The notes: generated from the sequence alone by a model not told the origin. A stretch of DNA of 50,654 bases from Methanobacteriota archaeon (GCA_002687935.1 NZBN01000004.1:1-50654), one strand, 5' to 3'; numbered from the stretch's first letter, positions 183 through 27,818 are shown. Translations and numbers: made by a program.

Positions 183-533
183 TTGAAAGAAAGCATAACA
201 CAATTTATTGGAACTGATAGAGTTTGTAAAGGATGTGTCACAGTATTTGAACCGGCATCGTGGAACCAATTATATTGTAATAAAATGTGTCGTTTGAATA
301 ATTATTGCCCGCCAACCATAAAATGTAAGGTTTGTGGAAATAAACGAGAGAAATATGGACGCGGGATGTGTAGAAGTTGTTGGAAAAGGAGTTACCTCTT
401 AAAGAAAAATCCAATAAAACAGAAAAAATGTAAAAAATGTAGTAAGACATTTGAAACACGTTTTTCATTTAAGATTTTTTGTTCAAATGAGTGTAAAATT
501 AGATACCATTCGGAAAACCAAAAATCTAAATAA
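183..533 (+). CDS. Cys-rich, basic putative zinc-ribbon protein
   Basis: 116 aa with six CxxC/CxxxC motifs (CKGC, CNKMC, CKVC, CRSC, CKKC, CSNEC); TTG start; AT-rich. Confidence 0.6.
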   Translation: MKESITQFIGTDRVCKGCVTVFEPASWNQLYCNKMCRLNNYCPPTIKCKVCGNKREKYGRGMCRSCWKRSYLLKKNPIKQKKCKKCSKTFETRFSFKIFCSNECKIRYHSENQKSK

Positions 534-606
534 TCCAAGCGCCGAGGATCAGATTCACTTCGTGAATAACCCCTCGTCGCGGGTTAAATAATCCAAGCGC
601 CGAGGA
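527..606 (+). repeat. 22-bp direct repeat of the tRNA-Ser 3' end plus trailer, flanking a 36-bp hairpin insert
   Basis: taaataatccaagcgccgagga at 527-548 and 585-606; insert tcaga-ttcac-ttc-gtgaa-taaccc-ctcgtcgcgggt. Confidence 0.9.
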
Positions 607-681
607 GGGGATTTGAACCCCCAAATCCCGAAGGAAACTGAGTTAGCAACCCAGCGCAATACCAGATTATGCGACCTCGGC
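598..681 (-). tRNA. tRNA-Ser(GCT)
   Basis: Cloverleaf with acceptor GCCGAGG/CCTCGGC, anticodon arm CTGGG-TTGCTAA-CTCAG, long variable arm, TTCAAAT T-loop, G73; CCA not encoded. Confidence 0.95.
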
Positions 682-819
682 TTTGTGTTGACTTCTTCTG
701 AGCCAAGGGTTATGCAGTATCTAATTGCATTGTCTGCATCTGACCTCGGCTTTGTGTTGACTTCTTCTGAGCCGAGGGTTACATAGTAACCAAGTTCAAG
801 GTCTATGTCTGACCTCGGC
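673..819 (-). repeat. Tandem array with 69-bp period upstream of tRNA-Ser: 40-bp repeats separated by 29-bp structured spacers
   Basis: Repeat at 673-712 and 742-781 (one mismatch), partial copy at 811-819; spacers 713-741 and 782-810 are both hairpins with 16-nt loops. Confidence 0.92.
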
Positions 820-885
820 GAACTTATAGCTCTAATCTCTTTCTAAGTTCTAGAAAAAACTAATAGAAAAGCTAGGATATAAAAC

Positions 886-1197
886 TTAAGTTTTGACCTG
901 AATTTCAATATTAACAGCGTCAGGAATTGGTATTCGCATAATTTGCCTCATGACTCTCTCATTCGGCTCGACGTCCATCAGACGCTTGTGAATCCTCATC
1001 TCCCAGCGGTCAAAAGTCGCTGTTCCCTCTCCATCCGTCGACTTGCGAGTGGTGACCTTGAGCTTCTTTGTAGGAAGTGAAATAGGTCCTGAGAACTTTA
1101 CCTTGCTGTCAGAGGCAATGCTCTTTATATTCTCACAAATATCATTAAGAAGGCCTATTTCTCTACCTGTTAGTCTTATTCTTGCTTTTGTCGTCAT
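886..1197 (-). CDS. rps10: 30S ribosomal protein S10 (uS10)
   Basis: [10 protein letters not shown]...WEMRIHKRL motifs; follows tuf. Confidence 0.97.
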
Positions 1198-1259
1198 AAA
1201 AAGAAAGAGTGAGGAGGAAAAGAATTACTCCTTTTCCTCTTCACGATATTTTTATTGGC

Positions 1260-2540
1260 TTAGTCCGACTTCTTAGGTGTTACCTTAGTAACTACACCAG
1301 CACCGACTGTTGCTCCCATATCCCTGATAGCGAATCTACCAAGAGGTGGGAAATCAGCGGCTGTCTCCAGAACAAAAGGCTTAGTTGGTCTAAACCTGAT
1401 GACTGCAGAGTCGCCAGACTTGAGCATTTCCTTGTTTTCAGTTACTTCCTGCCCTGTCTTCGGATCCATCTTCTTGACAATCTCTTCGATTGTGCAAGCT
1501 ACCTGCGCTGTGTGGCAGTGGATTACCGGTGTGTATCCTGCGGTTATTGCGCTTGGGTGCTGTAGAATAACAACCTGTGCCTCGAAAGTCTCTGCGACCT
1601 GAGGTGGATTGCTTACTTCTCCAGCTACGTCTCCGCGCTTTACCGAGCCTTTGTCAAGGCCGCGAACGTTTATTCCGACATTGTCCCCAGGCTCAGCCTG
1701 TGGAAGCTGTTCGTGGTGCATCTCAACAGTCTTAACTTCTCCAGTTGCCCCGCTTGGTTGGAATAGCAGCTTCATGCCTGGCTTGAGAAGTCCTGTCTCA
1801 ACACGGCCAACAGGAACAACACCAACACCAGTAATGCTGTATGCATCCTGGATTGGCATCCTGAGTGGCTTGTCTGTTGCCTTTTCAGGCGGAACTAGCT
1901 CGTCGAAACGCTTGATGAGTGAAGGTCCTTTGTACCATCCCATATTCTCTCCAGCATCTGCTGTCATGTTCTCTCCTGTTACGAAAGCTGCTGTTGGGAT
2001 GAAAGTTACTTCATCTGTCTTTACGCCGACCGGCTTTAGAAGGTCTTCAACAGTCTTCTTGACTTCATTGAATCGCTCTTCCTTCCAGTCTACTTCGTCC
2101 ATCTTGTTGATGGTTACGATTAGCTGGTTAACGCCGAGTGTTTTAAGAAGCCATGCGTGCTCCTTAGTCTGTGGCTGAATTCCCTCTTTGGCCGAGACGA
2201 CCAAAACAGCTGCATCAGCTTGGGAAGCGCCTGTGATCATGTTCTTGACGAAATCCCTGTGACCGGGTGCGTCAATGATCGTAAAGTCGTACTTCTGAGT
2301 CTTGAACTTCTTATGAGCTACATCAATGGTCAGACCTCTTTCTCTCTCTTCCTTTAGCCTGTCCATGACGAAAGCCAATCCGAATGTCTCCTTACCCAGA
2401 GTCTTCGCTTCCTCCTGGATCTTCTTCATTTCCTGCTCAGGGATGTTTCCTGTATCAAACAGTACTCTTCCGACTGAGGTGGACTTTCCGTGGTCCACGT
2501 GGCCAACGAAGACCAGATTCATGTGTGCTTTGTCTGCCAT
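1260..2540 (-). CDS. tuf: Elongation factor 1-alpha
   Basis: [31 protein letters not shown]. Confidence 0.99.
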
Positions 2541-2602
2541 GTTTTTTTCTCCTTGCGAACGATATGGTCATGCCATAATCGCGAGCATTATGATGTTATT
2601 AC

Positions 2603-2616
2603 ACCTATATATAGGT
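2603..2616 (-). promoter_or_regulatory. TATA-like perfect palindrome, possible internal promoter for tuf
   Basis: acctatatataggt (14-bp palindrome) in the fusA-tuf spacer, 63-76 nt upstream of the tuf ATG. Confidence 0.4.
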
Positions 2617-2635
2617 TTATATGTGATTTTCGCCA

Positions 2636-4840
2636 TCAACCGAGCAAGTCGCTCGGAGTCTGTGGATTCTCGCTAAGACCCTTCCTCTGCCTGATTTCAG
2701 AAACGGTTTTTGCCTGCAATTCCTTTGGAATCTTCTCGAAACCAGAAACTTCCGTGCTCCAGAGGACTCTTCCCTCAGTAGCGCTTCTTATTGCGCCTGC
2801 AAATCCAAACATTTCTGCTACAGGGGACTTTGCGACTATTTCCATTTGGTCTCCTTCCTGTTTAATATCAAGTATCTGACCTCGCCTGCTCTGCATTTCC
2901 TTGTTTACAGAACCCATATGAGTTTCAGGAACACGGACGAATACCTTCTGTATAGGCTCTGTTAGGCTTATTCCAGCTGTCAGCATAGCTGCCTTTATTG
3001 CATTCCTTACTGCAGGGATTACCTGTGCAGGTCCCCTGTGAATAGCATCTTCGTGAAGTTTGACATCGTGAAGAACAACTTTTAGTCCAGCACATCGTTC
3101 ATTTGAAAGCGGACCCTTCTTTACAACATCGTCAAATCCATCCATACAGAGTTCCATTACTTCTCCAAGGTGGACTTCTCCCTTGACAACGCTCATGAAG
3201 ATATTATTTCCGTGGATGCTTGAAACTCCCTTTGCAAGCTTGCTGTCCATTCCAAGCTCTGTGAATTTCTTTACAATCTCTTTCTGTGTCTTCTTCTTTA
3301 TTCGGCCCTGGGGAAGCTCTCCCTTAAGAATTGCCTCTGAGATTTCCTCTTCCAGTGGGTGAACACTGATGTAGAATTTGTTGTGCTTGTTCGGGCTCTT
3401 TCCTTCGAGTTGAGGACTCATTGACTCAGTAGTTTCTCTGTAAACTACAATTGGGTCAGATGAGTTGATTGGAATTTTATGGTCATTCTCTATTCTGTAT
3501 TTCCAGATTTCAAGGTGAAGCTCTCCTGTACCAGACATCTTGCACTCTCCGGTTTCTTCGTCGACTTCAATCTGGATTGCAGGGTCTTGTTTTGCGATTC
3601 TGTAAAGAACTTCAACAAGTTTTGGCAGGTCCTTTGTACTTTTTGCCTCTATAGCTTCTGTAACGACCGGCTCAGTCTCCTGAATTCTTTCGAAGGGGTC
3701 AATCAGCTGAGAGGGAATGCATCCGGTTTCTCCTGAGCGGGCTGTCTTCAGACCGCTTACAGCGACAATGTTTCCGACAGGGACTTCCTCAATCTGGACT
3801 CTGTCATTTGTCATGTAGAGAGCCAATTGCTGGATTCTGAAATCCTGATTTGCGTTTATTAAATGAATATCACTTCCTGCTTTGAGAGTTCCTGAGTAAA
3901 GTCTTCCGAGAGCAACGTCTCCTGCGTGGGGGTCAGAATGAATCTTGGTTATCATAAAAGCAACTGGACCATCTTTATCGCAGGCCTTTAGTTTTTCTCG
4001 GACCTCATCATCTTCTCCAGGCCAGATTGCAGGAATTCTGTATTTCTGAGAGTCTACAGGACTTGGGTGGTGCTTGACAACAAGGTCAAGGGCTATTTTT
4101 GAAAGTGGTGCCTTGTCTGCGAGTTCCTTCCACTTGTCGTCTCCTTCACTGTATGCGTTGATTATATCACCGAATGATATGTTGAGCTCCTTCATGTGAG
4201 GAACTGAAAGTGCCCATCGATGGAAACCTGAACCGAACATAACGGAGCCGTCTTCAACTCTGACCTTCCAGTCATGCTCGAAATCATCAGGAAGATTCTT
4301 TGCAATTAGCTGGTTTACCTTTGCGATTATTTTTACAAAGCGCTCCTGCATCTGCTCCGGTGTCAGTTTAAGTTCTCTTATAAGTCTGTCAACTTTGTTT
4401 ATGAAAAGAAGTGGCTTTACTCTTTCTCTGAGAGCCTGTCGTAAAACTGTTTCTGTCTGAGGCATGCAGCCTTCAACAGCATCGACGAGAACTAGTCCGC
4501 CGTCAACAGCACGCATTGCTCTGATGACGTCGCCACCGAAGTCAACGTGACCGGGAGTGTCGATAAGATTTATAAGATAATCTTCTCCTTCAGAATTGTG
4601 GACCAGAGTAACATTTGCCGCATTAATCGTGATTCCACGAGCCTGTTCCTGCTCGTCGAAGTCGAGTGCTCTCTGCTGTCCTGCAAGTTCTTCAGAAATA
4701 AGTCCAGAGTCTGCAAGAAGGCTGTCAGAAAGTGTTGTCTTTCCGTGGTCTATGTGGGCTATAATTCCCATGTTCCTGATTTTATCAGGAGTCTTCATCA
4801 ATTCCTTTATCTGTTCAATTAAATCTTCTCTTCGTCCCAT
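2636..4840 (-). CDS. fusA: Elongation factor 2
   Basis: AHIDHGKTT, DTPGHVDF, NKVD, diphthamide loop DAIHRGPAQ. Confidence 0.99.
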   Translation of the reverse strand: MGRREDLIEQIKELMKTPDKIRNMGIIAHIDHGKTTLSDSLLADSGLISEELAGQQRALDFDEQEQARGITINAANVTLVHNSEGEDYLINLIDTPGHVDFGGDVIRAMRAVDGGLVLVDAVEGCMPQTETVLRQALRERVKPLLFINKVDRLIRELKLTPEQMQERFVKIIAKVNQLIAKNLPDDFEHDWKVRVEDGSVMFGSGFHRWALSVPHMKELNISFGDIINAYSEGDDKWKELADKAPLSKIALDLVVKHHPSPVDSQKYRIPAIWPGEDDEVREKLKACDKDGPVAFMITKIHSDPHAGDVALGRLYSGTLKAGSDIHLINANQDFRIQQLALYMTNDRVQIEEVPVGNIVAVSGLKTARSGETGCIPSQLIDPFERIQETEPVVTEAIEAKSTKDLPKLVEVLYRIAKQDPAIQIEVDEETGECKMSGTGELHLEIWKYRIENDHKIPINSSDPIVVYRETTESMSPQLEGKSPNKHNKFYISVHPLEEEISEAILKGELPQGRIKKKTQKEIVKKFTELGMDSKLAKGVSSIHGNNIFMSVVKGEVHLGEVMELCMDGFDDVVKKGPLSNERCAGLKVVLHDVKLHEDAIHRGPAQVIPAVRNAIKAAMLTAGISLTEPIQKVFVRVPETHMGSVNKEMQSRRGQILDIKQEGDQMEIVAKSPVAEMFGFAGAIRSATEGRVLWSTEVSGFEKIPKELQAKTVSEIRQRKGLSENPQTPSDLLG

Positions 4841-4845
4841 TTTAA

Positions 4846-5448
4846 TTAACGTGCGCTTGCTGCAACCCTCTCAAGTTCATCTCTTTTGCTGACAGCATAG
4901 CACTTCTGGTCACCATTGCCTGCTGCAATAATTTCAGCCGCAAGAGAAGTTTCCACACTCTGCCTAGATTTGAAGGCTCTTGAGCTTGCTCCATGGCTGA
5001 TGAATCTGAGTGCAAGGTCAACTCTCCTGATTGGAGAAACATTAACAGGTCTGTGAGCGATTATTCCACCCTGCCTAATTCTTGTTGTTTCCTCAATTGG
5101 GGCACTGTATTCTACCGCGCGAACGAGGACCTGAAGAGGATTTTCTGATGTCTTTTTTTCTATGATTTCAAGAGCTTTTCTGACTGATGTAAGAGCCTTC
5201 TGCTTCTTTCCTGAGTCACGACCGCTGATTTTCTTGTGAGTTCTGTTATCCTTCAAGTGCCCTGTGACCATCATCTTGTTTGCCAGCCTCTCGACCATTG
5301 AATAGTGAAGGTTACCGAATTTTACCTTTGCATATTTTCCGTAAGAATGTGGGACTATGTTTCCGCCGGTGTTAAGATATGCTTTAAGACCAATGTCTCG
5401 TACCAGAAGACTTGAGGTTTCCCATTTGCCAAAAACTTTGAAATCCAT
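4846..5448 (-). CDS. rps7: 30S ribosomal protein S7 (uS7)
   Basis: NPLQVLVRAV, EETTRI, SPIRRVDLALR, ELERVAASAR. Confidence 0.97.
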   Translation of the reverse strand: MDFKVFGKWETSSLLVRDIGLKAYLNTGGNIVPHSYGKYAKVKFGNLHYSMVERLANKMMVTGHLKDNRTHKKISGRDSGKKQKALTSVRKALEIIEKKTSENPLQVLVRAVEYSAPIEETTRIRQGGIIAHRPVNVSPIRRVDLALRFISHGASSRAFKSRQSVETSLAAEIIAAGNGDQKCYAVSKRDELERVAASAR

Positions 5449-5885
5449 TACTTGAGTGACCTCTCTTTCTTACCTCTGATGAGTTCCGGAAGGGAAACTC
5501 CATTGACTTTAATAACTTTGAATCTGACACCAGGGATGTCCCCTTTTGACTTACCCATTGGTCCACTGATTCCGACAATATCGACTTCGTCGTGCTCATT
5601 TATGAAGCTGATAGCATTATTTCCGGGCATGAAGGCAGTAACCATTTTATTATTCTTTGTAAGCTGAACTCTGACACACTTCCTGATAGCAGAGTTAGGC
5701 TGTTTTGCCTCAAGACCGACCTTTTCAAGAACGATTCCCTTAGCCTGAGGAGAGCCTGCAAGGGGTGAAGAACGGATATTTAGAGCAAGAGCTCGTCTTT
5801 TGTAGAGGCGGTCACTCCATCTAAAGCGCTGCCTTCTTTTCTTCAGCTTTCTTGCTGTAAACAGTCCGGTTGGTTTTCTTGCCAT
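5448..5885 (-). CDS. rps12: 30S ribosomal protein S12 (uS12)
   Basis: [27 protein letters not shown]. Confidence 0.98.
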
Positions 5886-6292
5886 TAGTTTACCTTCACC
5901 TGCAAATTATAGTGTCTTTTTAGTAAGGAACCTAGTATTTTAACCTTTTTGCCACCTTTTCCAATTACTCTTCCCTTGTTGTAGTCGTCTGTGTTTATCA
6001 AGAGAGTGTCGTCTTTAAGCTCAATTGAATACTCCATTCCATTTCCGAGATAATTCCTGACGAAGTTTACAGGATCCTCTGGCATTTCTACGATGCGGAC
6101 ATTTTTTCCTACATCTCTTGTCAGACGCTTTGCATTTTCCCCGTTTTTTCCTATTGCAAGGCGGGCATCGCCTTCCTGTACGATGTAAATGAGCTCGTTT
6201 TCAGAATCAATACACTCAATAACACGGGCATTTGAAATTTTTTCAAGAGCGCTTACAAGTGCAAGGGTATCATTCGTTATAAGGAGCGTCAT
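5885..6292 (-). CDS. nusA: Archaeal NusA (KH domains)
   Basis: AIGKNGEN and [11 protein letters not shown] loops; canonical position in the operon. Confidence 0.93.
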
Positions 6293-7428
6293 TTCTTATC
6301 TACCTTTTTCATTATCAGCTCTGGAACACCGGTTCCAAGGTTTATTACCTGCCCGACAATTATATTCTCAACAACACCGTTTAGAGGGTCGTCTTCATTG
6401 TATGCTGCTGCCTTTAGAAGATGCTTTACAGTTTCTTCGAAGCTTGCTCTTGCGAGGACTGATGCCTTGTCTCCGGAAATTCCGTGCCTTCCGACAGCTT
6501 TAACCCGGCCATCAGCGCACATTGTGTCAGAGACAAGGGTTATGTGCCTGTTGTCAACAGATAGACCTGCATCGTCGAGTGTGAGAATTGTCTCTTCAAC
6601 AAGCATGTTTCTTGCGGCTTCGATTCCGAAGACCTTCTCTGTTTCAAGTATATCATTGCTCTTTGTTCTGGAAGCGTCGACACCAGGAACAATGAGAGTG
6701 TCTTTTAGATTTGTTCCACTTGTGTAAAGTACAAAGTCTCGGTCCTTCTTCTGTACGACGACATAGCTTATTCCGCCAATTCCTGAAAGATGAGTTTCTC
6801 GCAAATCTTCCTTTAACTTCTGTAAGAGTGATGCAATTTTTTTCTCTGTCTTTACTACTACCTTATTTCCGCCTTCAACTGAGACGCGATTTCCATAGAT
6901 TTCTACAAGCTGATTCTCAAGCTTCTTCGGAGTTATGTTTCGCTTCTTCAGCTCCTCTTTGTCCAGAGTTGCAGTAACTGAATATTTTGCGAAGTCAGTT
7001 GACATTTCAGTCATTATGTTCTTTATTCGGGTCTCCTTAAGACGGTGAGCCATTGATTCTGCCTTTTCAATTGTGTTATTAGACTTGTCAAGATAAATTT
7101 CCATCATTGGAGTCTTAGGAGTTCTTCGTGCATCGAAGATTTCAATAAGCCGGGGAAGACCACGAGTAACGTCCATCGCAGTTCCTGCGTAGTGCTTGGT
7201 TCTCATCATCATTTGAGTTCCAGGTTCACCGAGAGACTGGGCGGCTATAACACCGACTCCTTCTCCTGGCTCTACCTTTGCCTTATTATATGTTGAGTTA
7301 ACGAGACTTAGAAAGTCCTCAGACTGCTTCTTATTCTTTACATTGCCTGCAAATGCCTCTGCCTCTTTCTTTAGCTTTGGAGGCAGTTCAAGTTCATTCA
7401 CTTCTGATGTATTTGACTTTTCACTCAT
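6289..7428 (-). CDS. rpoA2: RNA polymerase subunit A'' (Rpo1C)
   Basis: [28 protein letters not shown]. Confidence 0.98.
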
Positions 7429-13518: not shown

Positions 13519-13569
13519 TTATGAATATCCTTCTGCCTTTTAGGCAATCTTCTGTACTATATTGGGCTA

Positions 13570-13643
13570 TGGGCCCGACGGGATTTGAACCCGCGACACC
13601 CTGGTTAAAAGCCAGGCGCTCTCCCAGCCTGAGCTACGGGCCC
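13570..13643 (-). tRNA. tRNA-Lys(TTT)
   Basis: Cloverleaf; anticodon arm CCTGG-CTTTTAA-CCAGG. Confidence 0.96.
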
Positions 13644-13677
13644 AATGAGGCCCTTTTTTGGTGTTGCGTGGGCCAAG

Positions 13678-13750
13678 CGCCCTGACTGGGATTTGAACCC
13701 AGGTCACGACCGTGACAGGGTCGTATGCTAAACCACTACACCATCAGGGC
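13678..13750 (-). tRNA. tRNA-Asp(GTC)
   Basis: Cloverleaf; anticodon arm CGACC-CTGTCAC-GGTCG; G73. Confidence 0.96.
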
Positions 13751-13844
13751 ATTTTGCGAGACTCCCGACTGATATTGTAAGTCTGTTGGGTGGTTTTATA
13801 TTTGGCCTGACATCGGTGATCTCCGCGAACGGATGAGTATGGTG

Positions 13845-13960
<116 letters not shown>

Positions 13961-13983
13961 CTCCATTTATGAGTACCCTGAGG

Positions 13984-14793: not shown

Positions 14794-14823
14794 AAGCTAA
14801 GTTGTGCTTAGTTCTTTATAAAG

Positions 14824-15078: not shown

Positions 15079-15102
15079 ATTACTGCATGTACATGAAGTA
15101 AT
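15079..15102. promoter_or_regulatory. 24-bp near-perfect palindrome, candidate operator
   Basis: attactgcatgtacatgaagtaat; 22 of 24 positions symmetric; intergenic, upstream of the pilin gene. Confidence 0.45.
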
Positions 15103-15264
15103 AGACGAGAGCGGCCGCGATAACAACGACGACACCCCCAACCAATAGTTTGTTCATGTGCGATATAAAGTTAAGAGCCTTATAAAGCTTTCTTGATAAC
15201 CCGCAACTACATGGGATTTGTGTTAAATAGATTTCTGTGCCACTTTAAGTGTAGAGGTGAGCTT

Positions 15265-19161: not shown

Positions 19162-19209
19162 CTTTCCAAGTTAAATCAAATTTATAACTTAAACCACGAA
19201 GTTTCCATC

Positions 19210-19578
19210 ATGGCGATACAAATAAGGGCGATAGAGGAACTTTATGTATATCTGAAGCAATTTGGGCTTACAGATTATCAAGCACAAGGAACAGCTGCTG
19301 TGATGATTCTTGGAAAGGCAACTGCTAGGGAAGTCAGTAAGAATACAAACATACAGATGAAACACGTCCACAGAACTATGCAGGAACTTGGATATTTTGG
19401 GCTGATAGAAACTATAGAGACACGACCAATGTTGTATATCGCAAAGCCAGATGAGGTTCTTGAACGTCTAATAGGCATGAAAGAGGAGAAACTTGAAAAA
19501 CTTCAGAGCAAGAGAGAGGACCTTCTTGGCACAATAGAGGACTACCAGAGCTCAGTGAAGCTGACAATAGAAGTCTGA
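19210..19578 (+). CDS. TrmB-like HTH transcriptional regulator
   Basis: LKQFGLTDYQA...TAREVSK...VHRTMQEL...GLIE..ETRP.LY.A.P. Confidence 0.8.
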   Translation: MAIQIRAIEELYVYLKQFGLTDYQAQGTAAVMILGKATAREVSKNTNIQMKHVHRTMQELGYFGLIETIETRPMLYIAKPDEVLERLIGMKEEKLEKLQSKREDLLGTIEDYQSSVKLTIEV

Positions 19579-19907
19579 TGGAACAACACTTGCTCGACGC
19601 AAAGGCAGAGGCATTCTCTTATTCTGCAAGATTTCCAGAAAAGCGATGGCGACGAATTGAACTGATGCAGAGAGTTGCAAAGGCGATTCAGAGGACAAGA
19701 GATAGTTGGTGTTTTTCTGATATTATTTATGCAATTGAACTTGCATATGGAGAAGAAACAGTAAACGAAAAACTTGTTGAGACACTTGCACTTGAGGGGG
19801 AAGAGTGGATAAACTCTTCTGAGAATATAGAATCATTGGGAGAAGATGGGATCGAAGAAGCCTTTGCTTTCATCTCTAAGACAGAAGACGACGATCTATA
19901 TTTTTGA
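19578..19907 (+). CDS. Hypothetical acidic protein
   Basis: 109 aa; start overlaps the TrmB-like stop. Confidence 0.65.
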   Translation: MEQHLLDAKAEAFSYSARFPEKRWRRIELMQRVAKAIQRTRDSWCFSDIIYAIELAYGEETVNEKLVETLALEGEEWINSSENIESLGEDGIEEAFAFISKTEDDDLYF

Positions 19908-19910
19908 ATT

Positions 19911-20054
19911 CTAGTTCTTTCTGAATCTCTGCGGAATTACACGATTGAAAAATTTCTTGTATTTCTTGACTAGAACGGTTCCAAGAACTGCAAGTACGGC
20001 CAGTTTCACTAGAACGTAGATTCCATATACACCGAGTAGTAATTTTATGGGCAT
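19911..20054 (-). CDS. 47-aa single-helix membrane peptide (absent from the ORF track)
   Basis: MPIKLLLGVYGIYVLVKLAVLAVLGTVLVKKYKKFFNRVIPQRFRKN*; GGAGGT RBS 3 nt before the ATG. Confidence 0.65.
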   Translation of the reverse strand: MPIKLLLGVYGIYVLVKLAVLAVLGTVLVKKYKKFFNRVIPQRFRKN

Positions 20055-20134
20055 GATACCTCCGCTACGAGTATTTTTAACTATAAAAGCATTGTGGAAG
20101 CAACATATTTATATCAACCAAAACTATGTGAGTT

Positions 20135-20656
20135 ATGGCAGATTACAAAGACTCAGATATATACAAAGGATATACTAAACCATTTCAGGCTCTCATTAAC
20201 ACTACGTTTAGAAATAAAAGGCGCGAATGGATTATAGTCCCGATGGGAACTGATGAAGAGCATCACTATAAATGGCTGGCAAGCTCATATTTCATACGAG
20301 ATTTATGCAAAGATGCACCACAGAGCGCCCAGTACGGATTCTATACAGTTCTTCCATACATTACAATAATGTGGGAAGGGAGAGGAATAACCTTGAACCA
20401 GGTCAGAGAAACTATTGATGGACAGAATTGGGCAGTATTGTTCAGGAGTGGAAACACCAGAGATAACACTTCTGCATTGTTTGAACAGATTAAAGGTCAT
20501 TTACAAACTCAATTCGGAGCAAGTTATGAAATCATTGAAGGAGTCGAGATTTCAGGAAATGGTTATAATTTGAACAGAGAGCTTAGAGAGAAGCTTGAGA
20601 AACAAATATCAGATTTCAGGCCAGTAAGAAAAATTGGTGTTTTTAAGAAGAAGTAG
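20135..20656 (+). CDS. Hypothetical protein
   Basis: 173-aa ORF with upstream tttatat; no family recognised. Confidence 0.65.
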   Translation: MADYKDSDIYKGYTKPFQALINTTFRNKRREWIIVPMGTDEEHHYKWLASSYFIRDLCKDAPQSAQYGFYTVLPYITIMWEGRGITLNQVRETIDGQNWAVLFRSGNTRDNTSALFEQIKGHLQTQFGASYEIIEGVEISGNGYNLNRELREKLEKQISDFRPVRKIGVFKKK

Positions 20657-20669
20657 CTAAAGTTCGCTT

Positions 20670-22283
20670 TTATTCTTCCTCTTCAGAAGCTCCACTTTCA
20701 ATCCATTTATTTAGAAATTCTGCTGCAAGAGCTTTTATCCTCATAACTTCTTTGTTGTAGGATTTTCCGTAAGAATACTTTTCTGAATATTCCCCAAAGT
20801 TGTGCTTTGCAGTATCAAAATACTCTGCAATATCGTCAGAACCCATATTTTCAAGGCTATCAATATGAAGTAGCCCCATTGCAGTTCGACGCCAACGCTG
20901 ATACTTTTCTGTGATTTCAGTAGCGTTCATCTCCTTCCATTCCCCTTCTGAAAGGGCGTCCGAAAAATCTTTCCACTCAGAGGGTATGTCCCCCTTCTTT
21001 TTGTAGTCCCTAGTCTTCCCCTCAAAAGGATCGAAAACAGGTGGAATATAACCAAGGGGTAGTAAGCCTGAAAGTATAACAGGTGGCTCAACAAGAAGCT
21101 TCAGAAGAAGCTCTTCAGTAATCCACACATAACCCCCTTCTCCAAAGCCCTTACCCCAACTATTCCTGATTTTGAAAGCCTTGACTCCACCACCTTTGTG
21201 TGGATAGTGTGAGTGGTAACCAACAATCGTCATTGCATGACATTCGTCTTTACCACCTGAAGTTTTTGTATAAAGAGATTTTGTATGATGGTTGAAATTT
21301 CCATAAGTATCCATAGCTATGTATATTGGGTCTCCTTGTTTCAGCCAAGATATCCACTCTGAAGTGTCAGTTCTGGAAAGTTTTAATGACTTCTGTGCAC
21401 CCCTTCGTCTTGCATCGTCTTCTATAATAGTAGCATTTTCAGGTTCCTCTGTAGGATTCTTTTTGAACTTATTTGGCTCATCTGATTCTTGATCCTTGTA
21501 GCTCCACAAAGCCTCGGTGCAAATTCCTTTATATGAAGCACGTGATTCATCTGTAATGCATGAAAAAATATTTTGAGTTAAGCTACCCACATCAGAATTT
21601 TTAGCTTCAACCCCTCTCCCGAAATAGTAAAGGAAGAGAGGAGAAAGTACCTCACTCTTTCCGTCAATATTGTGGTAGTATTCCACCATACAAGAGGCAG
21701 CAAATGCAGCGCAGGAACCTAGCCCCCCTTGTGACCTTACACCCAGAAAATTTTCAGAAAGGTCAATTAAAATTTCTTCAGTATTAATTTCTTCTTTTTC
21801 GGAATCTGATAGCTCATCAGCCTCCTCTATTTCATCGAGGTCTTCGTCGACGTGGAGCTGAGGCTCTTCACGCTTTTCATCCGGCATATCTGGATCACTA
21901 TCTACAGAGTCTGCCAAATCTACCAGACCTTCAGGGTCTATTCCCTCTCGTCGCTCGCCAGCGTCTTCTTCATCCGCAGGCGCAGGAGGAGTAGGTCTTC
22001 TTCTGCCAGGTCCTCCGTCAAAGCCTAATCGACGAAATAAGAAAATAAGTGCCACTACAGCTACCAGGAGGATAATTATTCCAGAGCCGCCCCCTCCGCC
22101 GCCAGTTGCTCCGCCACTGCTTCCGCCACTAACAGCAGAACCTCCACCTCCGCCGAAGGAAATACCACCAAAACTCTCCATTATGCCCAGACCAAGGAGT
22201 CTGTCAGCAAAGAAGAGTGCGCCTATAATTACAATAAGGACTATGAGGATTTTACCAAATTTCCCATACTTTTTCTTAAACAT
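20670..22283 (-). CDS. Membrane-anchored papain-like (C1) cysteine protease
   Basis: Q..GSC (SQGGLGSCAAF), CHAMTIVGY, IRNSWG; two N-terminal TM helices joined by a Gly-rich linker. Confidence 0.88.
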   Translation of the reverse strand: MFKKKYGKFGKILIVLIVIIGALFFADRLLGLGIMESFGGISFGGGGGSAVSGGSSGGATGGGGGGSGIIILLVAVVALIFLFRRLGFDGGPGRRRPTPPAPADEEDAGERREGIDPEGLVDLADSVDSDPDMPDEKREEPQLHVDEDLDEIEEADELSDSEKEEINTEEILIDLSENFLGVRSQGGLGSCAAFAASCMVEYYHNIDGKSEVLSPLFLYYFGRGVEAKNSDVGSLTQNIFSCITDESRASYKGICTEALWSYKDQESDEPNKFKKNPTEEPENATIIEDDARRRGAQKSLKLSRTDTSEWISWLKQGDPIYIAMDTYGNFNHHTKSLYTKTSGGKDECHAMTIVGYHSHYPHKGGGVKAFKIRNSWGKGFGEGGYVWITEELLLKLLVEPPVILSGLLPLGYIPPVFDPFEGKTRDYKKKGDIPSEWKDFSDALSEGEWKEMNATEITEKYQRWRRTAMGLLHIDSLENMGSDDIAEYFDTAKHNFGEYSEKYSYGKSYNKEVMRIKALAAEFLNKWIESGASEEEE

Positions 22284-22344
22284 CGTATAATATTAAGGAA
22301 CTTTATAGCTATAATAGTTTTTCAAATTGAATTTTGAAAAAAAG

Positions 22345-22438
22345 TCCCCCCGGCTGGATTTGAACCTGCAACCTTCCGGTATCAGCACATACTGATGACG
22401 TTCTACAGCCGGACGCTCTGCCATTGAGCTACAGGGGG
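22345..22438 (-). tRNA. tRNA-Tyr(GTA) with 22-nt intron at 37/38 (22381-22402)
   Basis: C1-G72 pair, A73, anticodon arm TCCGG-CTGTAG|A-CCGGA; BHB with one U-U in the central helix. Confidence 0.92.
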
Positions 22439-22674
22439 ATAACATTTTGATGAATGTTTGCTTATTTAAATCTAGTGGGGTGCTTGCTTGTCTCGATGCT
22501 ATTATAGTTTAGTTCTGGCAAAGCTTATTTGGGAAGTATTATACTTATCTTTTTAAGCCTTGAATTATGGAGAAAATATACTTTTTTCATAATCTCCCTT
22601 GCATTATTTAACTGATCTTTAGTAAGACATTATTATATCAGAACGGAGTGAAATGGTTGAAGAGGGGAGTGTAG

Positions 22675-22748
22675 TGGGCCCGACCGGATTTGAACCGGCG
22701 ACCTTTACCATGTGAAGGTAACGTCATACCGAGCTAGACCACAGGCCC
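22675..22748 (-). tRNA. tRNA-Val(CAC)
   Basis: Cloverleaf; anticodon arm TTACC-TTCACAT-GGTAA. Confidence 0.95.
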
Positions 22749-22801
22749 ACAAGTATTCTTTGGGTAGGGGTTACGCGCTTGCGCGTCTGACCACAGGCCC
22801 A
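22737..22801 (-). repeat. 13-bp duplication of the tRNA-Val 5' end flanking a TCAGA...TAACCC hairpin insert
   Basis: gaccacaggccca at 22737-22749 and 22789-22801; minus strand GGGCCTGTGG-TCAGA-CGCGC-AA-GCGCG-TAACCC. Confidence 0.85.
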
Positions 22802-22816
22802 TCTGCATTCAATCGT

Positions 22817-23386
22817 TTAAAGCCAATCACCAGAAGGTCGCTCTTTTGGCTTCTCATCTTCTGCAGACTCTGTAGCTTCGCTTGTCTCTGCTACAGGGGC
22901 TTCATCTGACGATGAACCAGGAAGGTCGAAAAATGCAAAGCTCGAAGGTGACTCTGTAGAAGCAGGCATAGCAGCTCCGCTTTTGACAAGAGCTTCAGGA
23001 TATTTTATTCCAAGCACCCTCAGAGCAAGATAGGCGGCATTTTTTCCATTATCAACGCCGACAGCCGCAACTGGAACTCCGGCAGGCATCTGTACTGTCG
23101 AAAGAAGGCTGTCCAGACCTCCGAGTTTTGCATCTACTGGAACTCCGATAACTGGTTTCGCGGTTATGCTTGCAACAAATCCTGGAAGTGCAGCAGAAAG
23201 ACTGGCCACGCAAATAAAAACATCTGATGCGGAATCCAGCACTATTTCTCGAACTCTGTCAGGATTTTTGTGTGCAGAAGAGACTTCACAAAGATAGGGA
23301 ACTTCGTAGACATCCAGAACTTTTTTTACAGACTCGGCTATATGCATATCTGTTTCCGAGCCGACTAATAGTGTTATGTGCTTCAT
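22817..23386 (-). CDS. purE: PurE (AIR carboxylase / N5-CAIR mutase family) with acidic C-terminal tail
   Basis: GSETD, SSAHK, LPG.VAS....PVIGVP, GGLDSLLSTVQMPAGVPVA; ATG 23386 overlaps the upstream stop. Confidence 0.9.
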   Translation of the reverse strand: MKHITLLVGSETDMHIAESVKKVLDVYEVPYLCEVSSAHKNPDRVREIVLDSASDVFICVASLSAALPGFVASITAKPVIGVPVDAKLGGLDSLLSTVQMPAGVPVAAVGVDNGKNAAYLALRVLGIKYPEALVKSGAAMPASTESPSSFAFFDLPGSSSDEAPVAETSEATESAEDEKPKERPSGDWL

Positions 23387-24297
23387 TCGATTGCCTCTTG
23401 CACGCTTTTTGCGAGCAGCTTCTCCATTGTTGGAAGACCTTCTCTTGCACCCATGTGCTGGATACATAAGGATGCAACTTTGCTTCCCATTTTTCCAGAC
23501 TCAGACAAAGTCCGTCCAGCAAGGATTCCGGCAAGGAATCCTGCGGCGTAGGCATCACCTGAACCTGTGCTGTCCACCACATTTGCAGGATATGTTGGGA
23601 TATTATATGACTCTTTCCTTGATGCGACATAGGAACCTTCCTTGCCACGAGTTACAGCAATTCTTTTGACTCCCAGCTTGAAGAGCCGGCTACACGCGCC
23701 TTCGTAGGACTCGTCCATGAGATATTTTATTTCCTCCTCATTTATGAGAAGGATGTCCGTCTTTTTGAGTATTGGAATTAATTCACTGTAACCGAAATGG
23801 GACATTACCTTGCCAGGAGAAAAACTTAGTTTTGTTTTTCCCAGTTTCTTGACAAGAGCCTTTTGAAGGTCCAGTTTACTGGAATCAACAAAGGAAGACA
23901 TATGAAAATATTTTGCCTTCTTAATTTGCTCAGTATTTATGTCACTTAGCTCGAGCTCTTTTGCCACGCCAGAATCTCTGTAAAAAGTTGAGGCACCAGA
24001 TTTATCAATTATAGCAAGTATTTTAGAAGTCTGCCCTTTTTTCTTTGAAACTCCTGATATTTTGACAGACTCTTTTTTGAGAATTTCCATAATATCCTTT
24101 CCTGCAGAATCAGAACCTACAACACCCAAAGCGGCTGTTTTGAAACCTAATCTTGAAAGTCCGACAAGAGTATTTGCGGCTGAACCGCCTGCCTCTTCTT
24201 TTTGTTCAAGTATACAAGCCTCTCGACCGTATGATGCAGAATCAACCCTATACAGAATATCCGTATTCAGATTTCCGAAGCCGATTACATCAGACAT
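23383..24297 (-). CDS. PfkB/ribokinase-family kinase
   Basis: GGSAANT..GLSRLG, INEEE, DSTGSGDAYAAG. Confidence 0.92.
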   Translation of the reverse strand: MSDVIGFGNLNTDILYRVDSASYGREACILEQKEEAGGSAANTLVGLSRLGFKTAALGVVGSDSAGKDIMEILKKESVKISGVSKKKGQTSKILAIIDKSGASTFYRDSGVAKELELSDINTEQIKKAKYFHMSSFVDSSKLDLQKALVKKLGKTKLSFSPGKVMSHFGYSELIPILKKTDILLINEEEIKYLMDESYEGACSRLFKLGVKRIAVTRGKEGSYVASRKESYNIPTYPANVVDSTGSGDAYAAGFLAGILAGRTLSESGKMGSKVASLCIQHMGAREGLPTMEKLLAKSVQEAIE

Positions 24298-25588
24298 TTT
24301 GAATTTCCTCCATTTTTTTCATAGCTTTCTGAGCAAGTCCTATAGTCCCTATATCCTTTCTATAGAATATGTTTTCGGACTTTACTGCAGAAATAGCGGA
24401 CTCAACTAAATCTTCCGAATCCTCGTGAGAGTCTTCTAAAGCAAGAATCGCGAGTGACCTACCTTCAGAGGTGTATAATTTCCCGTTCTTGATATTGACA
24501 CTATTGTAGTACAGCTCGGCGCCTGCCTTAGATATTTTATCCTCGTCAACACTAAGAGAGACACCAATCTTCGGTTTTTCCGGATAGCCAACAGGAACTA
24601 AATATTTGCAAACAGATGCCTTCTTTTTGAATTCTATGCTTGGCCATAATTTCCCCTCGAGAATGGACATACACAAGTGAGAAAAATCTGTCTTTAGAAG
24701 AGATAAGACATTGAGTGCTTCAGGATCTCCAAAACCGGCAGAAATATCAAGAAGTTTTGGACCCCCTGCAGTCATCACAAAGCGAGCGCAGAGAACCCCC
24801 TTATAGACTGAATTGTGTTCTGATTTCAAAGCTCTTAGAAGTTTTTGGAGAATTGACAAAGAATTTTCTGCATCCTCAGTGCTGATATATGGCAGAAGGT
24901 GGTTTGACTCAGAATAAGTTCCTACATCTTCACTTAAGTGGATTTTGTCATTTTCTGAGATTTTGTAACTCTTTACAAGAGGCATTGGAGAGAGTGTTTC
25001 ACCGTCAGTGAAAACCTGTAAAGTAAATTTTTCCCCTTCTGCTTTTTCCTGGAGAACAACTGAGGTAGAACCGGAAGACTTGTCCCCAATCGATCTGTAA
25101 GCGTATTCCCTGGCAAGGTAGGGGGTTTCAAAGTGATTTTCTGGACTTTCGGAAGTGCTGACAGAAAGAGAAGTTCCAATATCTCTGAATGCATTATTGA
25201 TTTCGTGACGGCTTTCACATGCAGCAAATTTCAGGGAGGCTTCAGAAGCATGATCCTGAATAAAAAATCTGAAGAAGGCAGAGTCCCAATCCAGCCTTGC
25301 TCCGGCTCTGCTTGGAGCCACTACCTGGAAACCGGCTTCTGAAAGAGCATCACCAACGCCGGCGGCGATAACAGTCCCCGGACCAATGAATATGTAATCA
25401 GGGATGACGTGTCTGGCAAAGAGGATTGCTTCATTAGCATCAAGAATATTGCCTACTTTTATTTCAGAAGCGAGGGAAGAAATTCCCGGATTGTCTAAGG
25501 AGACAAAAGCATAAAGCTCGGAACCTTCGACCATCCTTTTTGCTATGGCGTGCTCGCGAGCACCACCACCTATAAGAAGCGACTTCAT
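24290..25588 (-). CDS. purD: PurD-like protein with eroded ATP-grasp motifs
   Basis: GGGAREHA, FGDPE, KYLVPVGYP and GR.L recognisable; K..GL.GGKGV, QDHKR and NTGGMG missing. Confidence 0.8.
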   Translation of the reverse strand: MKSLLIGGGAREHAIAKRMVEGSELYAFVSLDNPGISSLASEIKVGNILDANEAILFARHVIPDYIFIGPGTVIAAGVGDALSEAGFQVVAPSRAGARLDWDSAFFRFFIQDHASEASLKFAACESRHEINNAFRDIGTSLSVSTSESPENHFETPYLAREYAYRSIGDKSSGSTSVVLQEKAEGEKFTLQVFTDGETLSPMPLVKSYKISENDKIHLSEDVGTYSESNHLLPYISTEDAENSLSILQKLLRALKSEHNSVYKGVLCARFVMTAGGPKLLDISAGFGDPEALNVLSLLKTDFSHLCMSILEGKLWPSIEFKKKASVCKYLVPVGYPEKPKIGVSLSVDEDKISKAGAELYYNSVNIKNGKLYTSEGRSLAILALEDSHEDSEDLVESAISAVKSENIFYRKDIGTIGLAQKAMKKMEEIQNV

Positions 25589-25629
25589 CCCAACCTCAAG
25601 ACAAATAAGAAAGGACTCTTATTAAACTT

Positions 25630-26004
25630 TTATCTGGAGGCGATGATGTGGCAGTCTTCAACAGAAACTTCAACAAAGTGTGTCGCCTCTCCATTTATGT
25701 AAGACTCACATTGATTAGACTGATCTCTGTCAACTTCTTCACGCGGATCGTGACCGGAATCACATACCCAGCCTTCAACTATGCTGTTTGAGAGACAGGG
25801 ACCTACACTTAAATCCTGACCTGCAGATTTGGAATCCTGGCAGAGTTTAACGCAAAGACTTTGAGGATTTTCAAGTAAATTACCCCCTACATTTGGAATA
25901 ACGATTTCACTGACACCCTGATAGAGATTTTCCTCAGCACTCGAACCGGCCAGACAGCCTGAAATTAGAAGTGGAAATACCATAATAAGAACTAATTTTT
26001 TCAT
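25630..26004 (-). CDS. Putative lipoprotein with six Cys in the mature part
   Basis: Lipobox-like LLISGC; C..LC, GPCLSN, WVCD, NQC, HFVEV...DC. Confidence 0.75.
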   Translation of the reverse strand: MKKLVLIMVFPLLISGCLAGSSAEENLYQGVSEIVIPNVGGNLLENPQSLCVKLCQDSKSAGQDLSVGPCLSNSIVEGWVCDSGHDPREEVDRDQSNQCESYINGEATHFVEVSVEDCHIIASR

Positions 26005-26028
26005 AAACTGACTATTGTAGAGAACTTT

Positions 26029-26559
26029 TTAAGACTTTGGGAGCCACATTTCAAGGATGATAATATCAGAATATACTCCATCTCTTTTCGAGTGTTTCTT
26101 GCGGGAAGCAACTCTTGAAAATCCAAGTTTTTCGTAGAATTTCAAAGCCCCTTCATTATTGGAGTCGCAGTAAAGTTCTACAAGTTCCAGACCCAAGTCT
26201 TTTGCCGAGTCAAGAGTCTTTTCAAAGAGTAATTTTGCTAAGCCGCTACCGCGCCAATTAACTGAAACACTTATGTCCATAATGGCTACGTGGTCCATAG
26301 CACTTTTCTTCATAAAGTCTCTGTTGATTCCACAGATACCGATAATTTTACCGTCGTGCAGGGCGACAAGGGTCACTCCTCTGTCAGTTTCACGCATTTC
26401 CTGAACGTAGGAAAGAAATTTCTGCTCTTCTTCGAGTGTAAATTTTTCAAGATGGGCTATGTAAGCATCCTCATCAATGAGGCAATTTATGTATTCCATA
26501 CAAATTTCAGCGTCTTCGATAGAGGGCTGCCTGAATTCAACTTCACTGAGATTCATCAA
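26029..26559 (-). CDS. GNAT N-acetyltransferase
   Basis: VSVNWRGSGLAKLL, NEGALKFYEKLGF. Confidence 0.9.
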   Translation of the reverse strand: MMNLSEVEFRQPSIEDAEICMEYINCLIDEDAYIAHLEKFTLEEEQKFLSYVQEMRETDRGVTLVALHDGKIIGICGINRDFMKKSAMDHVAIMDISVSVNWRGSGLAKLLFEKTLDSAKDLGLELVELYCDSNNEGALKFYEKLGFSRVASRKKHSKRDGVYSDIIILEMWLPKS

Positions 26560-26873
26560 TTTCTCCTGAATTGTTCAAGTTGGCGCCTTTCCTCAGCAGG
26601 CATATGCTGCTTCTTTTGGAGTCCCTTGAAGTTGTTCTGAACTCCTTTGAACTTCTGAAGGACTCTTCCAGTGTCAACTTGAGGACCATCAGGGAAGAGA
26701 ACTTTCGAGCACTCTTCTACAAGATCCAAAAGGTCACGAAGAGAGTATGCTATTGCATCCTCAGTGCTCTCTCCTGGATATTTGTTAACCAGCTTAAGGT
26801 TTCTCTGATGGTAGTCAAAAAATTCCTGCAACCACAAGTATGCTTGGGTCCATTCTTCAAATTTGCGTGCCAT
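26556..26873 (-). CDS. Hypothetical protein
   Basis: 105 aa; stop overlaps the GNAT start. Confidence 0.6.
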   Translation of the reverse strand: MARKFEEWTQAYLWLQEFFDYHQRNLKLVNKYPGESTEDAIAYSLRDLLDLVEECSKVLFPDGPQVDTGRVLQKFKGVQNNFKGLQKKQHMPAEERRQLEQFRRN

Positions 26874-26949
26874 ATTTTTCTTTAGGTTTAACAGAATAAA
26901 TACCTTTCATGAAGACAGAAATATATAGGAGAGACAACAAATTCAAGAC

Positions 26950-27276
26950 ATGAGTAAGGAAGATAAGGAACTGGAAGAAAATATCAAGGATATGTGGAAG
27001 AGGCTGAGGATAACTTACAATTCTACAATACAGGAATATATTGAAGCTCTTACAGGACATATAAAAAATCTTGAAAGAAGAAGAGAGTCCCCTCAAGAAA
27101 AATTAAAAGCTGTACAAAAAAGAGTTGATAAGATAAATGAAGAACTACAAGAAATAGATGACGAAATTGTTTTTGCTAAGGGTGAACAAGCAAAATATTT
27201 TACACTAAAACTTGAGAGAGGAGAAAGGACCAAACTAGGAGAGATAAAAATATCTGAGAAAAGAGACAGAAATTAA
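26950..27276 (+). CDS. Hypothetical coiled-coil protein
   Basis: 108 aa, E/K-rich heptad character. Confidence 0.6.
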   Translation: MSKEDKELEENIKDMWKRLRITYNSTIQEYIEALTGHIKNLERRRESPQEKLKAVQKRVDKINEELQEIDDEIVFAKGEQAKYFTLKLERGERTKLGEIKISEKRDRN

Positions 27277-27280
27277 AGAA

Positions 27281-27649
27281 TTATCTGGATTTGGATTTTC
27301 TCCTGTTTCTTTGGCTTCTTCTTCGTTTATCCTTACTGAGGAGAGTTACCCACTGACTGTGAGTTTTACTGTCCATTGAAGGTAAATTATTTACAACCTC
27401 AGAAACACCTTTGAGAAAATCTTCAACTCTTATTTCAGAATCACCAACTGAAGATGACAGAAGCTCGCGATTTTGCTTCCTCCAGTTATCAATTAGTAAA
27501 ATAAGTTTCATTTTTTCATCATCTAGTATATATTCTCTGTTGCTTGTTCTTGTAAAAACAGGAGCAACTAAAGCATTTATTTCTGCAAGACGAGAATCCA
27601 GCTGAAGAAGATGCAGATCATTTATACTTACGCTCTTTTTTGAGGACAT
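27281..27649 (-). CDS. Hypothetical protein with basic tail
   Basis: 122-aa ORF. Confidence 0.55.
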   Translation of the reverse strand: MSSKKSVSINDLHLLQLDSRLAEINALVAPVFTRTSNREYILDDEKMKLILLIDNWRKQNRELLSSSVGDSEIRVEDFLKGVSEVVNNLPSMDSKTHSQWVTLLSKDKRRRSQRNRRKSKSR

Positions 27650-27724
27650 AATTATTGTAATTCCTAGATGTATTTAAAGAATTCGATAAAAGCACAAACT
27701 GGGCGCTGAATTTGATAACTTACA

Positions 27725-27818
27725 CCCCGACTGGGACCCAGAAGCACTTTTTTAGAAAAAAAGTTGCACAAAAAACCCCTCGCTTCGCTCGGGAGTAAAC
27801 CAAGCGCCCCGACTGGGA
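27725..27818 (+). repeat. 12-bp duplication of the tRNA-Glu 3' end flanking a 70-bp hairpin insert
   Basis: ccccgactggga at 27725-27736 and 27807-27818; insert shares CCAGA, AACCCCTCG, CGGG and TAAA blocks with the tRNA-Ser 3' insert. Confidence 0.8.

Follow-up and report, generated by a model that had tools for sequence, protein, structure and literature searches.

The ends of tRNA genes in NZBN01000004.1:1-50654 (GCA_002687935.1, labelled Methanobacteriota archaeon) carry tiny insertions built around a hairpin; this whole stretch of 50,654 nucleotides (nt) is called the window below. We consider it probable, at roughly 0.6, that these insertions form a family of tiny (~35–70 bp), gene-less insertion cassettes specific to the order Undinarchaeales, and that they are DNA of a mobile or duplicative kind and not a conserved RNA gene. 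The Undinarchaeota are a marine DPANN lineage of archaea. We read the cassettes at the level of DNA because the units are gained or lost whole, are stacked with decay of the outer members, place one core at unrelated targets, keep a polarity tied to the gene end and not to transcription, and also occur at protein genes. New from this locus are a three-species series of filled and empty sites, covariation between arm and target, a core common to the order and a blank for nine enzyme families.

The window is contig C4 of a 666-kb genome in 11 contigs (G000), which was compared with two sister species of the same genus (G001 and G002). From the outside towards the gene, a cassette consists of a displaced old tRNA terminus, a core hairpin, an arm, a spacer of 12–20 nt and the fresh terminus of the intact tRNA. 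In this genus, the core has the frame TCAGA, 5-bp stem, loop, complementary stem and TAAC, and the arm is the reverse complement of the nucleotides directly preceding the core.

Filled and empty sites in sister species

The flanks of every tRNA gene in G001 and G002 served as the comparative set. Filled and empty versions of one site, a comparison proposed in a preliminary description of the window, were found between G000, G001 and G002: at least 14 orthologous tRNA sites differ among the three species, with identical flanks at the compared sites. In the order G000/G001/G002, the 5′ side of tRNA-Ser(TGA) carries 2/0/1 cassettes, the one in G002 having a new inner stem, CACA/TGTG, and the 5′ sides of Val(CAC) and Thr(TGT) are filled/empty/filled and filled/empty/empty, respectively. 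The 5′ side of Ser(CGA) is empty/filled (0/1), the 3′ side of Val(GAC) is filled/empty, the 5′ side of Ser(GCT) holds two versus three cassettes, and G001 alone has cassettes at about ten further 3′ sites. Within the genus, a single orthologous site holds between 0 and 3 cassettes.

In a filled site, the outermost fragment occupies the exact place of the tRNA end in the empty genome, beside the native promoter or terminator. It is also the most decayed, as in ACCGTGGTC on contig C10 and in CCCTAGGCGC and CCCGAGGAGC at the 3′ side of Ser(TGA). Because the outermost fragment keeps the native flank and is the most decayed, new material enters on the gene side and displaces the older units outward. 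These comparisons show that sister species differ by the gain or loss of entire cassettes and that cassettes stack in tandem arrays, the oldest fragment outermost.

Layout of the cassettes in the window

The preliminary description had listed four framed copies with differing stems, and their coordinates and stems are as claimed: TTCAC/GTGAA at 549–572 (+), TGCAG/CTGCA at 743..707 (−), CATAG/CTATG at 812..776 (−) and CGCGC/GCGCG at 22790..22768 (−). Its further claim that the copies are tied to tRNA termini in both orientations, with the intact tRNA retained, holds for all framed copies. The features of the two loci are as follows.

527–548, + strand: outer copy of a 22-nt repeat, the displaced old 3′ end of tRNA-Ser(GCT) with its trailer, as reverse complement (100% over 22 nt with 585–606)
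549–570, + strand: core of the Ser(GCT) 3′ cassette, TCAGA, TTCAC-TTC-GTGAA, TAAC, antisense to the tRNA (strict scan, fold)
571–584, + strand: arm CCCTCGTCGC, pairing with the old end (8/9 bp), then a GGGT linker (fold; the module recurs in other cassettes)
585–596, + strand: trailer part of the inner copy of the 22-nt repeat, lying between cassette and working tRNA end (repeat comparison)
597–681, − strand: intact tRNA-Ser(GCT) (tRNA calls)
682–701, − strand: type A spacer, 20 nt, between the proximal cassette and tRNA position +1 (repeat comparison)
702–750, − strand: proximal 5′ cassette, GCCGAGG, TCAGA, TGCAG, 16-nt loop, CTGCA, TAAC, CCTTGGC (fold, covariance model)
751–770, − strand: second copy of the 20-nt type A spacer (repeat comparison)
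771–819, − strand: distal 5′ cassette, CATAG type, loop ACCTTGAACTTGGTTA (fold, covariance model)
22674–22748, − strand: intact tRNA-Val(CAC) (tRNA calls)
22749–22761, − strand: 13-nt spacer of the Val(CAC) 5′ cassette
22762–22800, − strand: Val(CAC) 5′ cassette, old end GGGCCTGTGG, TCAGA, CGCGC-AA-GCGCG, TAAC, decayed arm CCCTACCC (strict scan, covariance model)

The 5′ side of tRNA-Ser(GCT) holds two copies of GCCGAGGTC, and GGGCCTGTGGTC is the duplicated terminus 5′ of tRNA-Val(CAC). The G002 orthologue of the Val(CAC) cassette has the arm CCACAGCCC, and the G001 site is empty. The 22-nt direct repeat at the 3′ end of tRNA-Ser(GCT), with its copies at 527–548 and 585–606, meets a convergent open reading frame (ORF) that is rich in Cys (CxxC-repeat, zinc-ribbon-like; 480–533, + strand), the last codon and stop codon of which (531–533) fall inside the outer copy. 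Since the duplicated segment covers both the tRNA end and the stop codon, tRNA-Ser(GCT) and the convergent ORF both stay whole.

The 5′ and 3′ ends of a gene carry mirror-image layouts, with the core sense at 5′ ends and antisense at 3′ ends. Polarity is constant, the TCAGA side pointing outward and the TAAC side and arm towards the gene; in 9 of the 29 copies aligned below the core is antisense to its tRNA, with the DNA polarity kept. Cassettes at 3′ ends often follow oligo-T runs. The flanking duplications are 8–30 nt long and variable, and the breakpoints vary as well: the crossover points of the duplications differ among tRNAs (positions 7–14 from the 5′ end), and the left junction shares 0–3 nt of microhomology with the first letters of the element (TC, TCA, T, CA).

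Folding bears out the earlier proposal that the three Ser copies in the window re-pair after TAAC, each forming one long hairpin, with z-scores between −3.8 and −5.3. The best copies fold into an outer helix of 7–9 bp, an internal loop of UCAG × AAC and an inner helix of 6 bp, with z-scores of −3.4 to −5.3. Ser copies are closed by an exact 7-bp acceptor stem, and the outer stem of the Val(CAC) copy is weak in G000 (z −0.3) and 9 bp long in G002. The old end and the new one are each complementary to the arm, making two alternative pairings possible, and the thermodynamic fold of the full 304-nt locus gives many alternative arm pairings and no clean cloverleaf.

A strict scan of the whole genome for CAGA, 5 nt, a loop of 2–40 nt, the exact reverse complement and TAAC yielded six matches, against 1.07 ± 1.03 (maximum 3) in thirty simulated first-order Markov genomes. 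All six lie within 150 nt of a tRNA end, in zones that make up 1.9% of G000. The two matches besides the framed copies border tRNA-Ser(TGA) on contig C10, a locus that mirrors Ser(GCT), with CATAG-type and TGCAG-type copies upstream and TTCAC-type copies downstream in opposite orientation. An IUPAC pattern search in the sister genomes gave matches as frequent as a reversed control, two true copies among them.

Because unitigs of four independent metagenome runs, from four studies, span the array junctions unchanged (675–771 and 697–840 are carried without difference), the duplications are not assembly artefacts, a concern that the preliminary description had raised. No joints indicative of alternative cassette numbers were seen in the contigs of the four DNA runs, which break at repeats.

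In all, the window contains a 5S rRNA gene and seven tRNA genes (ARAGORN, Rfam). The cluster of 5S rRNA, tRNA-Asp and tRNA-Lys (13569–13960) is without cassettes. tRNA-Tyr and tRNA-Ile(TAT) have introns of 22 and 29 nt, respectively (22344–22438 and 27882–27985), and ARAGORN needs introns allowed to find both.

Covariation and arm–target matching

A first covariance model (R1), trained on the four long-loop copies, was too specific and recovered only those four. It was replaced by model R2, the second of two building rounds, which aligned 29 copies, 26 of them distinct, from seven genomes. In this alignment, which was fitted to its own model and so is biased towards structure, 95.6% of cells are standard pairs, with 99.4% in the inner and 92.1% in the outer helix, and all 13 pairs are changed on both sides. 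When the 3′ partners were slid by 1–3 columns as a control, 26–48% of cells were paired. The stem covariation postulated from the window is therefore real once relatives are searched, and the stems of independent copies are by eye different and complementary throughout: TTCAC, TGCAG, CATAG, CGCGC, CACGC, CACA, CACAG, GTGCAG and TGAAAC.

The arm follows the target. One core subtype occurs at unrelated targets, as CGCGC-AA-GCGCG with arms GGGCCTGTGG/CCACAGCCC at Val and as CACGC-AA-GCGTG with GCCCGGA/TCCGG at His. The arms at Val and Trp pair with tRNA positions 1–10 or 4–10 instead of the 3′ strand of the acceptor, and a T-arm is lacking there; specifically, the Trp arm in G004 pairs with positions 4–10, and the helix at that site is the complement of whatever precedes the core and does not mimic the acceptor stem. 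In tRNA-Ser(TGA), the acceptor pair 5:68 is A-U in G000 and C-G in G001. The Ser(TGA) 3′ cassette of G001 shows A→C in the arm and T→G in the old fragment, matching the change from A5-U68 to C5-G68 in the tRNA.

The core across the order

The part that is constant throughout the order is a hairpin with the 16-nt loop RCCTTNNAATTGGTTA. In the internal loop, the letters vary by lineage, being TCAGA/TAAC in this genus and G007 and AAAA/TTAA, CAAC/GAGC or CAAT/CAAG elsewhere, and short-loop copies (TTC, AA, TAAC, TTCG) are without the conserved 16-nt loop. Model R2 matches 10 of the 13 Undinarchaeales genomes sampled, all of them incomplete metagenome-assembled genomes (MAGs), and none of 48 archaeal genomes outside the order, four of which belong to the same phylum.

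About 21 of the 29 model matches, over seven genomes, adjoin tRNA ends, and in the genus all cores lie within 150 nt of a tRNA, among them the strict matches in G000 (6/6). About eight copies are found directly behind stop codons or in the gaps that separate protein genes (G005, G006 and G011) and follow the same logic of old end, arm and new end, the arm pairing with a copy of the next gene's 5′ region. G005 also holds two copies of a conserved ~150-nt unit, neither beside a tRNA (G005:C1:13262, L031; G005:C2:84188, L037), composed of a long-loop core, a UUCG-capped hairpin and a TTCAC..GTGAA-type UUCG hairpin.

In line with the earlier statement that no described family with this layout was recognised, Rfam has no match: at the gathering threshold the window yields only tRNAs and 5S rRNA, and at E ≤ 1 six related loci yield only tRNAs and noise. 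Scans of viral contigs and genome contigs with a 14-base loop pattern gave only chance matches, none with a flanking stem. No description of such cassettes was found in the literature searched. A 2026 survey of archaeal transposons reports no eukaryote-like repeats in Undinarchaeota (PMC13343696).

Other cassette families at tRNA ends

The insert behind tRNA-Glu(TTC), which had been taken for a divergent fifth copy at 27737–27806, does not have this frame. It belongs to a different, T-rich family and, over 44 nt, shares 95% identity with the insert that follows tRNA-Val(GAC) on contig C2. Its features, which include a 12-nt 3′-end fragment behind tRNA-Glu(TTC), are as follows.

27723–27737, − strand: displaced, slightly decayed old 3′ end of tRNA-Glu(TTC)
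27738–27803, − strand: insert behind tRNA-Glu(TTC), member of the separate T-rich family, having a (C/T)CAGA end and a CGAGGGG module
27804–27879, − strand: intact tRNA-Glu(TTC) (tRNA calls)

Members of the T-rich family are G000:C2:2852-2915, window 27723–27803 and the unit at the 3′ side of G001 Lys(CTT) (L049). They have the hairpin GCACTTTTTT/AAAAAAG.TGC, no target-complementary arm and an oligo-T run directly after the restored tRNA end that is likely a terminator. The T-rich and framed families have only the (T/C)CAGA end in common.

In G001, three further cassette families occupy the 3′ ends of about ten more tRNAs, all at sites that are empty in G000. An insert of ~95 nt follows six of them, Thr, Val(TAC), Ile, Phe, Pro(TGG) and Arg(GCG) (L049, L050, L051, L054, L056, L066); it has a 10-bp stem, CAATGTTTTT/AAAAACATTG, and a loop with two pieces resembling the tRNA-Ser 3′ end, and each copy ends in a 15–16-nt duplicate starting in the T-loop. 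The 3′ flank of Glu(CTC) (L064) carries a minimal 37-nt hairpin insert within a 30-nt direct repeat of tRNA end and trailer, and the 3′ side of Lys(CTT) a T-rich unit. On G004:C6 (L027, after locus position 1565), a tRNA-Trp-like 5′ end, GGGGCTATGGTGTAAC, is followed by unrelated sequence and receives no tRNA call from ARAGORN or Rfam; this may be a split gene or a tRNA that carries a large non-canonical insert.

Search for a mobility enzyme and comparison with known systems

Six-frame Pfam searches were run on G000, G001, G002, G004 and G007, which are 75–87% complete. In these five genomes, nine families were undetected: tyrosine recombinase (two models), serine recombinase, Y1, TnpB, DDE_Tnp_1, rve, reverse transcriptase (RT) and Cas1. 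The blank includes the tyrosine and serine recombinases PF00589, PF16795 and PF00239, as well as the Y1 HUH transposase (PF01797) and TnpB, and none of the partner genes suggested earlier (HUH, tyrosine recombinase or RT) was seen. Since no Phage_integrase-type tyrosine recombinase matched at all, the five genomes have no recognisable XerA; the control genomes all matched. No kb-sized insert bounded by cassette cores was seen.

The preliminary description had offered two readings, a non-autonomous element resembling repetitive extragenic palindromic (REP) sequences or the miniature transposable elements with inverted repeats known as MITEs, and a tRNA-mimic RNA. The filled and empty sites favour a non-autonomous element; its assignment to REP/RAYT or IS200/IS605 is not supported. 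These share with the cassettes small non-coding units, a hairpin conserved in structure and not in sequence, and a short part complementary to the flanking target, whereas the cassettes have no Y1/HUH or TnpB, long direct repeats of 8–30 nt with variable breakpoints, opposite orientations at the two ends of one gene, no strand bias and no fixed tetra- or pentanucleotide target. Like MITEs, the cassettes are miniature, non-coding, non-autonomous, multi-copy, lineage-specific and polymorphic in presence and absence. A MITE with shared terminal inverted repeats does not fit, in that the arms are target-derived and copy-specific (Ser, Val, His, Trp, Cys), the duplications are variable at 8–30 nt as opposed to the fixed 2–10 nt of MITEs, no DDE, rve or other transposase was detected and no parent insertion sequence was found. 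The tRNA-mimic reading is weakened by the 9 of 29 antisense copies, by the Val and Trp arms pairing with positions 1–10 or 4–10, and by the restriction of TCAGA/TAAC to particular lineages.

Several structural candidates were rejected. An archaeal bulge-helix-bulge intron does not fit on inspection, as the cassettes lie outside intact tRNAs and their internal loop is 4 × 3 nt and directly opposed. For a kink-turn (L7Ae-binding), also judged by inspection, the non-bulged strand UAAC of UCAGA/UAAC lacks GA beside the C stem, and the loop letters vary by lineage. Loop E, tetraloop receptor, integron attC and C/D-box small RNA were ruled out on inspection; an armless mini-tRNA conflicts with cassette loops of 2–16 nt in place of 7; and snap-back synthesis as the source of the arm would yield TCTGA, not TAAC, opposite TCAGA.

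Other known systems share part of the architecture. Integrative elements at tRNA genes and their integrase-less derivatives likewise restore the tRNA and give occupied and empty sites between relatives. In contrast, the cassettes are 35–70 bp long, carry no gene and no detectable integrase, use 5′ ends as often as 3′ ends, have variable breakpoints and contain, next to a conserved hairpin, the target in inverted copy. The tRNA-linked repeats of E. coli and the t-elements of Haloferax are short units by tRNA or rRNA genes that copy a tRNA terminus or mimic the acceptor stem and are probably handled by tRNA-processing enzymes. The cassettes are not known to be related to them in sequence and differ in having a conserved foreign core, in occurring in both orientations and in being polymorphic for insertion. 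Insertion with long and variable target duplication was reportedly described by Nobusato et al. in 2000. This process, as treated by Furuta et al. 2010 (PMC2853133), is the nearest documented analogue and is likewise without a known mechanism. The likeness lies in the lack of a recognisable mobility gene and in variable long repeats that keep adjacent genes whole, as the 22-nt repeat does here; those units, however, are kb-sized bacterial restriction-modification units with repeats of at least 30 bp, whereas the cassettes are archaeal and tens of bases long.

Discussion

On our reading of the cassettes as insertions, they would spread as DNA by a process that duplicates 8–30 nt of the target. 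The enzyme might be supplied in trans by a virus or plasmid outside the genome bins, or it might be a host or unknown activity, and the mobilising activity may recognise the inner hairpin and loop. As no plausible promoter other than the native one upstream of the old fragment is present, copies at 5′ ends would be transcribed from it as part of the pre-tRNA leader and would then be removed by RNase P. If so, the outer helix could be under selection for sequestering the spare terminus together with the arm, thereby keeping them from competing with the acceptor stem of the tRNA; transcription of the 5′ copies makes such selection plausibly one for insulation of the spare terminus at the RNA level.

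Several points weigh against this reading. The nine enzyme families are blank in five genomes that are 75–87% complete. Presence and absence could partly reflect precise loss between direct repeats and not gain, and movement is read from comparison only, among 13 incomplete MAGs. The reading also gives no account of the origin of a target-matched inverted arm at a new target. Conservation of the loop across the order and the compensatory changes would fit a functional RNA as well, and variable breakpoints, duplications of 8–30 nt and 0–3 nt of microhomology also fit template switching during replication.

The alternative that survives best, although we consider it unlikely, is a functional structured RNA, a cis-acting module of pre-tRNAs and some mRNAs that would serve as a processing signal for RNase P or tRNase Z, in the manner of t-elements, or as a switch in which the arm pairs with either the old end or the working 5′ end and a factor on the 16-nt loop decides. 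The strong covariation in both helices, the 16-nt loop conserved across the families of the order, the position of 5′ copies between native promoter and tRNA (hence transcribed), the two pairings open to the arm and the compensatory changes between arm and target are all in its favour. It does not readily explain 0–3 copies at one orthologous site within a genus with decaying outer copies, nor the antisense copies (9/29), which keep the DNA polarity and whose RNA would carry the complement of the loop. Further, 3′ cassettes often lie behind oligo-T runs, the helix at Val and Trp is not an acceptor-stem mimic, and Rfam has no match.

More doubtful still is the possibility that the cassettes are scars, or cis-mobilisable minimal derivatives, of viruses or plasmids that integrate at tRNAs through an integrase absent from the bins, the hairpin being an inverted repeat of attP. 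A direct repeat of the tRNA end around the insert, with the intact tRNA retained, is the classic att signature (PMC9897764). Consistent with this possibility, other cassette families of G001 start their duplication in the T-loop (ATC...), a usual integrase crossover site, and extrachromosomal elements are often missing from MAG bins. On the other hand, the three recombinase families are undetected in the five genomes, no kb-sized core-bounded insert was seen and all cores in the genus stay within 150 nt of a tRNA; crossover points vary by tRNA (positions 7–14 from the 5′ end), a target-matched inverted arm is not an att feature, and the pattern scan of viral contigs gave only chance matches.

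We think it improbable that the cassettes are not mobile at all and arose as by-products of replication or repair at tRNA genes, through fork stalling with template switching or fold-back, followed by gene conversion among similar tRNAs. The order of old end, inverted copy and new end resembles the products of template switching, microhomology of 0–3 nt at the left junction, variable duplication length and the failure to find an enzyme agree with it, and the Ser cassettes are common to tRNA-Ser paralogues with nearly identical ends. The core, however, is unrelated to tRNA sequence, is conserved across the families of the order and recurs at Val, His, Trp, Cys and protein genes, and simple fold-back predicts TCTGA opposite TCAGA, yet TAAC is kept. 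Finally, an assembly artefact can be put aside almost entirely: short tandem repeats are error-prone in MAGs and Logan contigs break at repeats, and against this the unitigs of four runs span the junctions unchanged and the same architecture is found in ten genomes.

More speculatively, and although we consider it unlikely, the cassettes might represent a new class of gene-less mobile DNA, one that duplicates an 8–30-nt terminus and writes an inverted copy of it beside a hairpin by means of an unrecognised, host or viral enzyme, in genomes where none of the known recombinase families tested was detected; the arm might guide the choice of the next target, and the process could feed the non-canonical inserts of archaeal tRNAs. 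In DPANN archaea, tRNA genes are fragmented and rich in introns to an unusual degree, and the route by which inserts reach them is an open question. Three sister species with no cassette, one or several at the same tRNA sites provide before-and-after sequence pictures of an insertion that spares the gene. Should the process be enzymatic, these genomes would hide an unknown recombination activity, since nine known families are undetected; should it be replicative, tRNA ends would be hot spots for templated triplication. In practice, the duplicated ends and the hairpins can lead tRNA annotation and assembly astray in archaea with small genomes.

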